A stretch of 5,340 bases of DNA from a virus (IMGVR_UViG_2541047120_000017); one strand, 5' to 3'; numbered from the stretch's first letter, positions 102 to 3,908 are shown. Made by a program: numbers and translations. The notes: generated from the letters alone by a model not told the origin.

Positions 102-287
102 GTTGACCTCATTTCCCCTTAACGCCGGGTAGCGGAACAAAAACCTGCTGCATAGTTATTAAAGTTGAACCCTGCCGTCATGTTCATACGCCTCGGGCTG
201 GCTACTTACCCCCTGACCACTGCTTGGTAACTCGAAGTATTGCCCGGCGTTCTGTGGGGCGGGGTGGGTGGTTGGTGTATGTAATCT

Positions 288-327
288 ACAATAAAAAACT
301 GTTTTTGTGTCAACAGTTTTTAATTGT
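288..327. promoter_or_regulatory. Palindromic operator-like site (OL-like): ACAATAAAAAACTGT (288-302), 10-nt spacer, ACAGTTTTTAATTGT (313-327, one mismatch to the perfect inverse)
   Basis: The 16-mer ACAATAAAAAACTGTT is identical to the one at 1323-1338. The site lies upstream of the minus-strand gene starting at 101 and just past the parE terminator. TTGACA on the minus strand (313-308) sits in the spacer. Confidence 0.5.
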
Positions 328-337
328 TGTTTTGGGC

Positions 338-360
338 AAAAAAATCCCTCGAAAGAGGGA
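338..360 (-). terminator. Rho-independent terminator candidate for the repressor-antitoxin-toxin operon
   Basis: On the minus-strand transcript: 6-bp stem UCCCUC/GAGGGA (345-350 with 355-360) with a 4-nt loop, followed directly by U7 (plus-strand A-run 338-344). It begins about 20 nt after the toxin stop at 379-381. Confidence 0.5.
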
Positions 361-378
361 GTATGAAAATTGTTCAAC

Positions 379-666
379 TCAGATAGAGAAGGGAAATTGT
401 CGCCGAGAATGTGTCACGCTTACAATCTCAATGCTTGAAGCAGCTACTCTGTACAGGATTATGTAGTTAGGGTGGGTCACGATCTCTCTCAATCCAGAAA
501 CCCGTTCGCTTGGTGGATATAAGTACGGATGCTCAGATAGAGGTAATACCGATGTTTCAATGCGTATTTTTAGTCTACGTGCTGCCGGTGGGTTCTCCTT
601 GGCGATGTAAGTTATGATCTGGCGCAAATCATCGCGAGCAGACGGTAGCCATAAAATGGGTAACAT
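379..666 (-). CDS. parE: ParE/RelE-family toxin of a type II toxin-antitoxin system (ParE2-like, 95 aa)
   Basis: ORF track 379..666. Motifs LWLPSARDDLRQIITYIA, LPLSEHPYLYPPSERVSGLREIV and HPNYIILYRV...IEIV fit the ParE fold. Its ATG overlaps the stop of the upstream small ORF (minus-strand TAATG at 668-664). Confidence 0.85.
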   Translation of the reverse strand: MLPILWLPSARDDLRQIITYIAKENPPAARRLKIRIETSVLPLSEHPYLYPPSERVSGLREIVTHPNYIILYRVAASSIEIVSVTHSRRQFPFSI

Positions 667-857
667 TACTCGCTCTTGTTAGTTACAGCAATTTGAGCAA
701 TAAGATTTTCCATTTCAGCCATTACCTCGTCATGTGGAATTGCGGGGCGAGTGTCTGCAAGGCTTGACGTTACTTTAGTGCGCAACCATTCGTTGTAACT
801 GTTTTCTTGTTCGGTAGTTTCGAATTCTGAAACTATCGGAGAAAGGGCTGTACCCAT
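666..857 (-). CDS. paaA: Small acidic antitoxin (PaaA2-like, 63 aa) partnered with the ParE toxin
   Basis: ORF track 666..857. GAGGAG lies 7 nt upstream of the ATG at 857. The stop is coupled to the toxin start. Size and the segment SEFETTEQENSYNEWLRTKV...RPAIPHDEV match the recalled PaaA2 antitoxin. Confidence 0.75.
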   Translation of the reverse strand: MGTALSPIVSEFETTEQENSYNEWLRTKVTSSLADTRPAIPHDEVMAEMENLIAQIAVTNKSE

Positions 858-884: not shown

Positions 885-1286
885 TCACGCCCGGCGGCTT
901 TTTTGTGCCGCCAGCCACCTAGCAATGGTTTCTTCCATTGATTTTTTCTTGTCTTTGATTTCTTGAAGCATTTTTTCTTGGTCTTCCTCAGGAAACGCAC
1001 TAAAAGCTTGGAGCAGTTCGCGTTGGCGAGGACCAATTTTCATCGTGTCAGGGGTGAAAATTTGCTCACACTCTTCAGGAGGCAATAAAAACCAATGCAA
1101 TGGATGCCCTGAAACCTCAACCAGTTTATCCAAACTTGAGGCTTTAGGTGTAGCCTTACCGCTGACCCATTGTTGAACAGTTTGTTGTGTCACACCAATT
1201 CTACGGGCAAGCTCAGCCTGGCTCCATCCAGTTTCCTGAAGAAGCTTGCTGATTCTGTACATAGATACTTCTAGGGCGCTCATCAT
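885..1286 (-). CDS. paaR: DicA/cI-type HTH repressor without a peptidase domain (PaaR2-like regulator; likely prophage maintenance repressor), 133 aa
   Basis: ORF track 885..1286. XRE-type HTH (SQAELARRIGVTQQTVQQWVSGK) and a C-terminal part (RELLQAFSAFPEEDQEKMLQE) parallel DicA architecture. It is divergent from the Cro-like gene. Tandem ATGATG start with no SD; alternative start at 1283. Confidence 0.85.
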   Translation of the reverse strand: MMSALEVSMYRISKLLQETGWSQAELARRIGVTQQTVQQWVSGKATPKASSLDKLVEVSGHPLHWFLLPPEECEQIFTPDTMKIGPRQRELLQAFSAFPEEDQEKMLQEIKDKKKSMEETIARWLAAQKSRRA

Positions 1287-1322
1287 TATTCAATTTTACA
1301 GGTAAATACTGTTAAAAGCATC

Positions 1323-1361
1323 ACAATAAAAAACTGTTGATTGCATACAGTTTTTTATTGT
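1323..1361. promoter_or_regulatory. Palindromic operator-like site (OR-like) in the divergent repressor/Cro-like intergenic region: ACAATAAAAAACTGT (1323-1337), 9-nt spacer, ACAGTTTTTTATTGT (1347-1361), a perfect 15-bp inverted repeat
   Basis: Perfect inverted repeat read directly from the sequence, duplicated at 288-327. It sits between the repressor start (1286) and the Cro-like start (1395). Confidence 0.55.
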
Positions 1362-1394
1362 AGGTTTTGCTTATAGTTTTTAGAGGAGGGCAAA

Positions 1395-1667
1395 ATGCTA
1401 GATAGCACTCGCGAAAAAATTAGGCAGAAATACACTCAGGCTGAAATAGGTCGTTATATGGGGGTCGCTCAACAGACTGTTTGGCAATGGTTTAGCTTTG
1501 GCGTTCCCCCAAAGCAGGTAATTCCGTTATGCCAACTAATGAAGTGGGAAGTTACCCCGCATGAAATCCGCCCAGATATTTATCCTAACCCAACCGACGG
1601 TTTACCTGTTGGATGTAAGGTTAACACATCAAATGCGCCGGAGTTGATTCATGAAAATCAAGCATGA
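1395..1667 (+). CDS. Cro-like HTH regulator of the YdaS type (90 aa)
   Basis: ORF track 1395..1667. Strong SD GAGGAGGG 4-5 nt upstream. HTH segment TQAEIGRYMGVAQQTVWQWF and the VTPHEIRPDIY motif are typical of YdaS-type Cro analogues. Divergent from the repressor. Confidence 0.8.
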   Translation: MLDSTREKIRQKYTQAEIGRYMGVAQQTVWQWFSFGVPPKQVIPLCQLMKWEVTPHEIRPDIYPNPTDGLPVGCKVNTSNAPELIHENQA

Positions 1668-2076
1668 ACACATCCGCATGGCGATGAATGCCTGGGCGCA
1701 TCCGGACGGCGAAAAAGTACCGGCTGCGAAAATTACCAAAGCGTATTTCGAGCTGGGAATGACGTTCCCGGAACTGTATGACGACAGCCATCCGGAAGCC
1801 ATGGCTCGCAATACTCAGAAAATTTTCCGCTGGGTGGAGAAAGACACTCCTGATGCGGTTAAAAAAATTCAGGCGTTGTTACCAGCGATCGAAAAAGCGA
1901 TGCCGCCTCCGCTGGTGGCCCGAATGCGCAGCCACAGTTCCGCTTATTTTCGGGAGTTGGTAGAGACGAAGGAACGGCTGGTGAAAGATATTGATGATTT
2001 CGTTGCATCAGCGATCGTTCTGTTCGATCAGATGAATCGTGGTGGCCCGGCAGGAAACACTCTGGCTGTGCATTAA
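1651..2076 (+). CDS. ydaT: YdaT-type protein (CII-like regulator family, 141 aa)
   Basis: ORF track 1651..2076. GGAG 7 nt upstream of the ATG. N-terminus MKIKHEHI and overall size match the recalled Rac YdaT. Overlaps the preceding gene by 17 nt. Confidence 0.8.
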   Translation: MKIKHEHIRMAMNAWAHPDGEKVPAAKITKAYFELGMTFPELYDDSHPEAMARNTQKIFRWVEKDTPDAVKKIQALLPAIEKAMPPPLVARMRSHSSAYFRELVETKERLVKDIDDFVASAIVLFDQMNRGGPAGNTLAVH

Positions 2077-2816: not shown

Positions 2817-3908
2817 ATGCGTGATTACGCAAAAGTTTCTCCGCGATTCTGGCTGGGAGAAACGGGGAGAGAACTTAGAAAGGCGGGTGCAGAAGCGCAA
2901 GTTGTTGCTTTTTACCTGATGACATCCCCTCACGCAAATATGCTGGGTTTGTATTACCTGCCAGTTTTATACCTTGCTCATGAAACCGGGCTTGGTCTGG
3001 AAGGGGCTTCAAAGGGGCTTAAAAGGGCTGTTGAAGCTGGTTTTTGTAGCTATGACCATGATGCAGAGATGGTCTGGGTCCATGAAATGGCAGCCTGGCA
3101 GGTTGGGGAAACGTTGAAGCCTGGCGATAACCGTTGTGCAGGTGTCAGGAATGAGTATGCATCATTACCTGAAAACGCTTTTCTGTCAGTGTTTTACGAC
3201 AGATATAAAACGGATTTCCATCTGGATGTGAGGCGGAATAATAGCCGAAATTCGGTAAGGGGCTTCGAAGGGGCTTTTAAGGGGCTTCGAAGCCAAGAAC
3301 AGGAACAGGAGCAGGAGAAAGAACAGGAACAGGACAAAAACACTATGGTTCATGGCAAAAAAAACACCACGAACCAGGCAGGGGATGTTCAGACCGTCAA
3401 TCCTGGTCAGCCAGCAGGCACGACACCGGAAGCCGATTCGGGCGCTGTGCAGCAGGTGATGACCGCAGGGTCGGAGCAATCACACCAACTGCAGCAGCCT
3501 GAAGCCGATTCCGCCATTCAGCGGGAAGCCGATCGGGTAGTCCCGGAAAGCACCGGGCAGTCTGTGGGACGAGTGGATTATCCGGATGTGTTCGAACAGG
3601 TCTGGCGGGAATACCCGTTGCGTGCTGGGGCAAACCCGAAGAAATCCGCTTTCAGTGCCTGGAAGGCCAGATTGCGCGAGGGGGTGCCACCAGAGACCAT
3701 GCTGGATGGTGTGAGGCGTTACGCGAGATACCTGGCGGCGACCGGGAAAGCGGGAACGGAATTTGTTCAGCGAGCGACGACGTTTTTTGGGCCGGACCGG
3801 AATTTTGAAAACCCCTGGTTGCTCCCGGTAAGCGGCACGAACAACCAGCGTTGTGTGAATCATATTTCTGAACCGGATACCGAAATTCCGCCGGGATTCA
3901 GGGGGTGA
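2817..3908 (+). CDS. Replication initiation protein (lambda O-like role; occupies the position just upstream of the DnaC-like gene), about 363 aa
   Basis: ORF track 2706..3908. Start preferred at the ATG at 2817 because GAGG lies 5 nt upstream, whereas the ATG at 2706 has no SD. N-terminal domain, low-complexity E/Q-rich linker and C-terminal domain. Iteron-like DNA repeats lie inside the gene. Immediately followed by the helicase-loader gene. Confidence 0.8.
   Translation: MRDYAKVSPRFWLGETGRELRKAGAEAQVVAFYLMTSPHANMLGLYYLPVLYLAHETGLGLEGASKGLKRAVEAGFCSYDHDAEMVWVHEMAAWQVGETLKPGDNRCAGVRNEYASLPENAFLSVFYDRYKTDFHLDVRRNNSRNSVRGFEGAFKGLRSQEQEQEQEKEQEQDKNTMVHGKKNTTNQAGDVQTVNPGQPAGTTPEADSGAVQQVMTAGSEQSHQLQQPEADSAIQREADRVVPESTGQSVGRVDYPDVFEQVWREYPLRAGANPKKSAFSAWKARLREGVPPETMLDGVRRYARYLAATGKAGTEFVQRATTFFGPDRNFENPWLLPVSGTNNQRCVNHISEPDTEIPPGFRG
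2988..3030. repeat. Iteron-like cluster A: GGGCTT-type motifs at 2988, 3004, 3014 and 3025 (AAGGGGCTTC / AAAGGGGCTT / AAAAGGGCTG)
   Basis: Direct repeats at 10-11 bp spacing inside the initiator coding sequence. Successive copies are read in different codon frames. Confidence 0.4.
3257..3289. repeat. Iteron-like cluster B: three tandem 11-bp units AAGGGGCTTCG / AAGGGGCTTTT / AAGGGGCTTCG
   Basis: Exact tandem repeats with 11-bp period. The three copies are translated in three different frames (RGF / EGAF / KGLR), so the repeat is a DNA-level feature. Confidence 0.5.
3297..3338 (+). repeat. Hexanucleotide tandem repeat (GAACAG)n, 7 units with variants, encoding an (EQ)n linker
   Basis: Units GAACAG GAACAG GAGCAG GAGAAA GAACAG GAACAG GACAAA read directly from the sequence. 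In frame with the initiator gene. Confidence 0.7.

Follow-up and report, generated by a model that had tools for sequence, protein, structure and literature searches.

The switch of prophage CP-933P (Sp12) is the closest described system to the one reported here, and it combines the repressor PaaR2, YdaS and YdaT with the paaA2-parE2 pair (Jurenas et al. 2021, PMC8630535; Prolic-Kalinsek et al. 2023, PMC9986795). The CP-933P switch has been demonstrated by EMSA, DNase I footprinting, 5' RACE and reporters (PMC8630535). Its PRM has the arrangement GATAAT-6 nt-ATG, and the mRNA was proven to be leaderless by N-terminal sequencing together with 5' RACE; PaaR2 is octameric in solution and, at low levels, stimulates PRM (PMC8630535). 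A homologous system on CP-933M was mentioned by the same authors (PMC8630535), and Sp4 is reported to carry a repressor without a peptidase domain and a DnaC-type loader (PMC2669165).

A second point of reference is phage 434, in which OR and OL each contain three 14-bp sites (PMC1636474). The outer 5+5 bp of these sites are contacted and the central 4 bp are read indirectly, as in the synthetic site ACAATNNNNATTGT (PMC1636474). On the operators of PaaR1 or CP-933M, the searchable literature holds passing mentions only, which do not describe the sites; an earlier account of the palindrome discussed below is possible.

Results

The immunity region of an O157:H7 prophage

The DNA analysed here, a stretch of 5,340 nt that we call the window, is the immunity region of a defective lambdoid prophage of E. 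coli O157:H7, to which it is 99.9% identical. In order, this prophage carries integrase, exonuclease, dicB, ydfB and a DUF1391 gene, then parE, paaA and an HTH repressor, and, divergently, a YdaS/Cro-type HTH gene, ydaT, a replication initiator and a DnaC-type loader. Judging from the CP-933P report (PMC8630535) and from the features of Sp4 (PMC2669165), the prophage is probably of the CP-933M/Sp4 type and its repressor the CP-933M 'PaaR1'. The genes around the switch are as follows.

379-666, minus strand: parE toxin gene (Pfam ParE_toxin, 3e-17)
666-857, minus strand: paaA antitoxin gene (Pfam PaaA2, 6e-19; PaaA2 structures 3zbe and 5cw7 at 1e-20)
885-1286, minus strand: repressor gene, 133 aa, PaaR1-type (Pfam HTH_3, 2e-12)
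1395-1667, plus strand: YdaS-family Cro-like protein, 90 aa, recognition helix AQQTVWQW (Pfam YdaS_toxin, 8e-10)
1651-2076, plus strand: ydaT, cII-like, by Pfam

The 133-aa and 90-aa reading frames on either side of the intergenic region are just as the original prediction had them. With paaA and parE directly downstream of the regulator and on the same strand, the locus has the layout of a PaaR-PaaA-ParE module, and the two genes are apparently co-transcribed with the repressor. The gene order parE-paaA-repressor, divergent from ydaS-ydaT-O-DnaC, is that of CP-933P, and the YdaT of the window matches the solved CP-933P YdaT structure 8bt1 over its full length (E ~1e-82).

The repressor has no match to a peptidase family in Pfam, and no 434-type, LexA/S24-like C-terminal domain was found in it. 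In its AlphaFold model, an XRE domain of five helices (residues 4-67) is joined by a flexible linker of low confidence (75-83) to a C-terminal pair of helices. The C-terminal ~50 residues are ~70% identical to PaaR2, and BLAST aligns nothing before residue 37. The combination of a PaaR2-like C-terminal part with an unrelated N-terminal HTH points to domain shuffling between oligomerisation and DNA-binding modules.

The cassette formed by the repressor, OR and cro occurs in 509 of 5426 complete E. coli genomes, O157:H7 among them. In the phage collection, no record with the cassette was found, and only ~60 bases at the end of the query, where ydaS meets ydaT, gave a match. The similarity to other phages and to CP-933P starts at ~1640, which puts the right-hand end of the exchangeable cassette a little upstream of 1644-1661. 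These latter positions (TTGATTCATGAAAATCAA) hold an exact TTGATT-N6-AATCAA, identical to the published high-affinity YdaT operator OM, which spans the ydaT start codon (1651).

Further to the right, the O-like initiator gene contains five exact copies of AAGGGGCTT with an 11-bp period, in two clusters at 3001-3020 and 3257-3287. They look like origin iterons within the O gene, as in lambda (6 matches vs 1.4 expected), and the clusters are followed by a Glu/Gln-coding GAACAGGA repeat at 3295-3334. On the minus strand, 2283-2738 corresponds to the RefSeq 'ECs1072 family phage-associated protein' and is nearly fully overlapped by a 169-aa open reading frame at 2090-2599 on the plus strand (no Pfam match).

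Five 15-bp sites in two regulatory regions

A repeat search recovered an inverted repeat with two 15-nt arms, 1323-1337 (ACAATAAAAAACTGT) and 1347-1361 (ACAGTTTTTTATTGT), which are 100% complementary and separated by a gap of 9 nt, exactly as the original prediction had claimed. At up to 3 mismatches, the 15-mer has 4 copies in the 5,340-nt window against 0.20 expected, a number reached by 0 of 200 dinucleotide-preserving shuffles, so the recurrence is far above chance. Measured from its centre (1342), the repeat is 56 bp away from the start codon of the repressor (A at 1286) and 53 bp away from that of the Cro-like gene (1395), and the earlier figures of about 40 and 50 bp have to be revised; its near edges are ~35-37 bp from these two codons.

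Two elements had been overlooked. The first is a second, near-identical pair of 15-mers at 288-302 and 313-327, ~1035 bp to the left of the 1323-1361 repeat, with one mismatch and a 10-nt gap. The second is a complete third 15-mer on the right (ACAGGTAAATACTGT, 1298-1312). An additional, half-site-like ACTGTT had been reported at 1311-1316; it is real, its actual position is 1308-1313, and it is in fact the end of this full 15-mer. There are therefore three sites on the right and two on the left.

Each arm of the repeat is itself pseudo-palindromic, with the form ACAAT-AAAAA-ACTGT. The corresponding pattern ACAR-N7-YTGT occurs exactly five times in the window, with starts at 288, 313, 1298, 1323 and 1347, all within the two regulatory regions (0.45 expected; 0 of 200 shuffles reach five), and no further copies were found across 16.8 kb of the prophage. 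We designate the five as putative operator sites; they are given below with the promoters that we predict around them.

283-313, minus strand: predicted PL, -35 TTGACA (313-308), 19-nt spacer (18 in most relatives), -10 TAGATT (288-283)
288-302: OL1, ACAATAAAAAACTGT, abutting the predicted PL -10; kept, mostly as ACAATTAAAAACTGT, in 23 OL variants with variable flanks
313-327: OL2, ACAGTTTTTAATTGT, abutting the predicted PL -35; identical in 21 of 23 OL variants
345-360, minus strand: terminator-like hairpin, TCCCTC TTTC GAGGGA followed by T7, between the end of parE and OL
1286-1321, minus strand: predicted PRM, -10 TAAAAT (1298-1293), 6 nt, A of the ATG at 1286; poor -35 ATGCTT (1321-1316)
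1298-1312: OR3, ACAGGTAAATACTGT, in the predicted PRM spacer; putative weaker third operator, containing the ACTGTT
1323-1337: OR2, ACAATAAAAAACTGT; invariant in 20 OR variants, at offset 39-40 from the repressor ATG family-wide
1337-1366, plus strand: predicted PR, towards ydaS-ydaT, -35 TTGATT (1337-1342), 18-nt spacer, -10 TAGGTT (1361-1366)
1347-1361: OR1, ACAGTTTTTTATTGT, inside the predicted PR spacer; invariant in 20 OR variants, at offset 63 from the repressor ATG family-wide

The three right-hand sites lie between the divergent repressor and cro-like HTH genes. Their centres (1305, 1330 and 1354) are spaced by 25 and 24 bp; in lambda, the OR centres are spaced by 24 and 23 bp. As in lambdoid operators, they are pseudo-palindromes ~2.3 helical turns apart that overlap both divergent promoters, these being predicted. 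On the left, the same sites are combined with a minus-strand TTGACA / TAGATT promoter candidate and are kept in 23 variants. In its predicted form, this set of three sites at OR and two at OL has the lambda/434 design.

The hairpin at 345-360 would stop the repressor-paaA-parE transcript just ahead of the PL region, and its stem shows compensatory changes in relatives (TCCCTCGAAAGAGGGA, TCCCTCGAATGAGGGA, TCCCTCGTATGAGGGA).

A footprint of conservation among close relatives

Relatives of the repressor were gathered from genomes and viral contigs. The close set comprises 42 loci with a repressor identity of at least 91%, which give 20 distinct OR sequences. Among these 20 variants, none of the 30 columns of the two arms (OR2 and OR1) and one of the 15 columns of OR3 is variable, compared with 6 of 9 columns in the spacer between the arms and 23 of 45 for the other intergenic columns together, spacer included. 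By Fisher's exact test, the arms reach p = 4e-7 and the three sites together p = 9e-8; both values are approximate because the sequences share descent. The single variable base of OR3 is the sixth, a central one, and OR3 is identical in a Salmonella relative (L092).

At OL, 23 variants were compared. The 15-mers and the hexamers TGTCAA and AATCTA are kept, and both flanks are variable. The OL pair forms a perfect 15-bp inverted repeat in 19 of the 23 (with loci L053-L087 in the comparison), with a compensated change of a central base pair relative to OR (ACAATT...AATTGT vs ACAATA...TATTGT). The single mismatch in the pair of the window is present because OL1 carries the OR-type base. The gap between the two left-hand sites (303-312) is 10 nt in the window, in six loci represented by L051 and in two represented by L059, and 9 nt in most relatives. 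It gives the predicted PL a spacer of 19 instead of 18 nt, which might weaken PL in this lineage.

Sites and recognition helices covary

The wider family falls into four specificity groups. In all of them, three 15-mers are found at offsets of 14-15, 39-40 and 63 from the first repressor ATG, so that the positions are constant across the groups. The automatic register search misplaced the sites in 5 of 44 variants (L002, L102, L107, L119 and L120), which by eye fit their groups. The groups differ in the repressor recognition helix, in the outer bases of the sites and in the sixth helix residue of repressor and Cro.

Group A: repressor helix TQQTVQQW; sites ACAR..YTGT; sixth residue of repressor/Cro Q/Q (L in a Klebsiella/Raoultella subgroup)
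Group B: repressor helix AQQSVQKW; sites ACAY..GTGT; sixth residue K/R
Group C: repressor helix TQQTIQKW; sites ACAAC..GTTGT; sixth residue K/K
Group D: repressor helix SQQTVQRW; sites ACAC or ACTC..GTGT or GAGT; sixth residue R/R

The recognition helix of Cro starts with Gln-Gln in every group. The repressor and the Cro of each immunity type change together with their putative sites.

The best sequence match of the repressor DNA-binding domain in the PDB is the 434 repressor (E = 3e-5), across QAELA..G.TQQ(S/T)(I/V)xQ. In the alignment to 2r63/1per, TQQTVQQ of the window repressor faces TQQSIEQ of 434, with the Gln-Gln and the sixth Gln in common. Foldseek returned many XRE proteins, 434 among them; these matches are to the generic XRE fold, and thus the fold alone is not specific for 434. 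Q34 and Q35 are invariant in the repressor family, and Q39 is the residue that covaries. In co-crystals of the 434 repressor, Gln28 and Gln29 read ACA and Gln33 reads position 4. By analogy, Q34, Q35 and Q39 would be the counterparts of Gln28, Gln29 and Gln33 and may read the same bases.

Predicted promoters keep a fixed register to the sites

The hexamers of the predicted PR are weak (7/12), and their placement follows from the relatives. The predicted -35 shares its first base with the end of OR2, and in the relatives TTGNNN or TTTACA always begins at this base. Nearly all of them also have a TAnnnT-type hexamer whose first base is the last one of OR1; two group-B relatives carry TATAAC and TATAAG. 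TATAGT (1372-1377) was considered as the PR -10 and rejected, since it varies among close variants whereas TAG..T at 1361-1366 is kept.

In the other direction, a -10-like hexamer lies 6-7 nt ahead of the first repressor ATG in every specificity group, a geometry from which a leaderless repressor mRNA is predicted. A repressor start at Met9 (1262) was rejected, both on this position of the hexamer before the first ATG and on the family-wide conservation of residues 3-8 as protein. OR2 is 1 nt from the weak -35 position of PRM, and its centre is ~44 bp upstream of the predicted PRM start. At the predicted PL, which faces the DUF1391/ydfB/dicB genes, both hexamers are identical in 22 of 23 OL variants. 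Transcription would start near 1373 from PR and near 276 from PL. A simple promoter scan of the window called none of PR, PRM and PL and nothing at OR, and thus these predicted promoters are drawn from the comparative register only.

The 15-mer as the probable unit of recognition

The original prediction proposed the repeat as the operator of the immunity switch. Comparative evidence supports an operator, but the 39-bp palindrome is most likely not one operator; it would be OR2 plus OR1. One possible alternative is that the whole palindrome is read as a unit, for example by a symmetric tetramer or by a dimer with widely spaced contacts. Such a unit would account for a mirror that is perfect, central A/T tracts included, in 20 of 20 OR variants, for the compensated inverted repeats in most OL variants, and for the mirrored OR2/OR1 that is also present in group D, at 11-14 of 15 positions. 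However, in one relative (L091) whose OR is identical to that of the window and whose recognition helix is the same, the OL pair is direct (12/15 in direct and 9/15 in mirrored orientation). The OL pairs of L092 and L093 are likewise direct, which argues that the unit is the 15-mer and not the 39-bp palindrome.

Three further observations tell against the undivided palindrome. The complementarity between OR1 and OR2 falls to 8-9 of 15 positions in groups B and C, yet each site is still in place in the three-site layout; conservation of the palindrome in related prophages, which had been suggested as a check, holds for the arms among the close variants, and the mirror is lost in these two groups. 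OR3 has no mirror partner. Finally, every 15-mer has an internal dyad, which becomes perfect at OR1 of the Salmonella relative L092 (ACAGTAATTTACTGT, a 7+1+7 palindrome; the repressor there is 80% identical) and in one site of an Arsenophonus relative, L006 (ACAAGATCATCTTGT). We therefore regard the single 39-bp operator as unlikely. In groups B and C, one half-site per 15-mer is degenerate and the sites look more like direct repeats, so that a reading as symmetric dimer sites is less clear there.

It is very improbable that the sites bind a different protein instead of the repressor and Cro, be it a host nucleoid protein (IHF or Fis, drawn by the A-tracts) or YdaT. The site centres are indeed A/T-rich, and the spacer between OR2 and OR1 contains TTGATT (1337-1342), a YdaT half-site. 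But the full YdaT site TTGATT-N6-AATCAA is present at 1644-1661 only, and the variable part of the OR region is precisely the spacer that holds the bases after TTGA. Furthermore, the sites differ between immunity groups in step with the helices of repressor and Cro, a pattern that binding of a host factor would not generate.

Least probable of all is a role as nucleic-acid structure, either an RNA hairpin (an attenuator or terminator, e.g. in PRE read-through transcripts heading for the repressor) or a cruciform in the DNA. The predicted RNA fold is stable on either strand (-18.5 to -20.2 kcal/mol, z ~ -5.5) and short T runs follow the stem. But the palindrome by itself accounts for this stability, the stem is A/T-rich throughout with no U tract directly after it, and an Rfam search gave no match. 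The repeat is also placed between the start sites predicted for the two divergent transcripts, and its arms are kept base for base and not by compensatory change within OR. In groups B and C, and likewise at the OL of L091-L093, the 15-mers are still present but have lost their complementarity.

Comparison with CP-933P, 434 and lambda

Beyond gene order and YdaT, the putative switch formed by the 15-mers shares several features with that of CP-933P: a leaderless PRM geometry with the -10, then 6 nt, then ATG; an OR between the divergent genes with an OL/PL beyond the toxin-antitoxin genes; and a homologous C-terminal repressor domain. In contrast, PaaR2 starts with MQKKEIRRL and its N-terminal HTH differs from that of the window repressor, there is no detectable similarity between the two Cro proteins, and the CP-933P operators are 18-bp repeats with the consensus GTTTAGTAA, not 15-bp ACAR-N7-YTGT sites. 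With different operators, HTH and Cro, the two prophages should therefore be heteroimmune. That the window is CP-933P itself was ruled out by the MQKKE start of PaaR2 and the GTTTAGTAA-type operators; only ydaT and the repressor C-terminal domain are common to both.

The likeness to 434 concerns the sites and the residues that may read them. The half-site ACAAT is shared with the synthetic ACAATNNNNATTGT, the centre is A/T-rich, there are several sites at both OR and OL, and Cro also has the Gln-Gln. Unlike in 434, the sites are 15 bp (5+5+5) and not 14 bp (5+4+5), with the form ACAR-N7-YTGT and not ACAA-N6-TTGT, the inner half-site is ACAGT, and two sites were found at OL. The 133-aa repressor has a PaaR2-type helical C-terminal domain without a LexA-like peptidase, and a toxin-antitoxin pair is linked to it.

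As in lambda, there are three OR sites, PR is predicted to be occluded from OR1 and OR2 with OR3 in the PRM spacer, the repressor mRNA is predicted to be leaderless, and the predicted OL is beyond accessory genes co-transcribed with the repressor. The lambda sites differ in being 17 bp long and unrelated in sequence, with three at OL, and lambda CI has a cleavable C-terminal domain. In the window, rexAB is replaced by paaA-parE and cII by the unrelated YdaT.

Discussion

Together, our results suggest that the inverted repeat consists of OR2 and OR1 of a lambda-style tripartite OR, accompanied by a two-site OL ~1 kb away. We put the probability of this reading, with putative binding by the flanking regulators, at roughly 75%. 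It is supported by the flanking HTH genes, the invariant arms, the recurrence of the sites at OL, their covariation with the recognition helices and the homologous CP-933P switch that has been demonstrated experimentally.

We then propose a mechanistic model, for which binding, stoichiometry, PRM activation, filling order and looping are what we infer from the arrangement of the sites. The recognition unit would be the 15-bp ACAR-N7-YTGT, with 5-bp half-sites ACAAT/ACAGT around a 5-bp A/T-rich centre. Each 15-mer would be bound by one dimer of the 133-aa repressor through its 434-like helix-turn-helix, and the YdaS-type Cro may bind the same sites. Repressor on OR1 and OR2, whose centres are 24 bp apart, would occlude PR, since OR2 overlaps the -35 and OR1 fills the spacer, and would probably stimulate the weak PRM for the expression of repressor, paaA and parE. 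OR3, in the PRM spacer, could mediate autorepression and, by analogy with lambda, is a candidate for the preferred site of Cro. On the left, OL1 and OL2 would repress the leftward PL with the same geometry. Because the C-terminal domain is homologous to that of the octamer-forming PaaR2, four dimers on OR1/2 and OL1/2 could loop the ~1 kb in between.

The mirror symmetry of OR2 and OR1 extends to central bases that are presumed to be uncontacted, which independent dimer sites do not predict. It is tempting to speculate, although we would give this idea rather long odds, that selection, and not inheritance alone, may maintain the mirror arrangement. The suggestion comes from a mirror that is perfect even at the central bases, is kept at OL through the compensated change and is seen in a second specificity group. 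The opposed A-tracts (A6 facing T6) might bend the DNA symmetrically around a PaaR-type dimer-of-dimers, and such bending might tune cooperativity or OL-OR looping by the octamer. If true, this would be indirect readout between operators, and not only within one.

The sites described here would represent a set of lambdoid operators that serves a PaaR-type repressor and has 434-like half-sites. Current understanding is left unchanged, and a textbook design would be extended to another immunity type. Knowledge of the sites offers direct reagents for the switch, namely defined 15-mers and point mutations at their ACA/TGT ends. The switch also lends itself to a natural comparison with that of CP-933P, with a common oligomerisation domain and a different DNA-binding module, and the four groups form a compact data set on how divergence of HTH specificity creates heteroimmunity. 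Sp4, the most probable type of the prophage in the window, can still be excised and packaged with the help of other prophages (PMC2669165). In E. coli O157:H7, the cassette would control both the early genes of this defective prophage and a toxin-antitoxin pair with ParE as the toxin.
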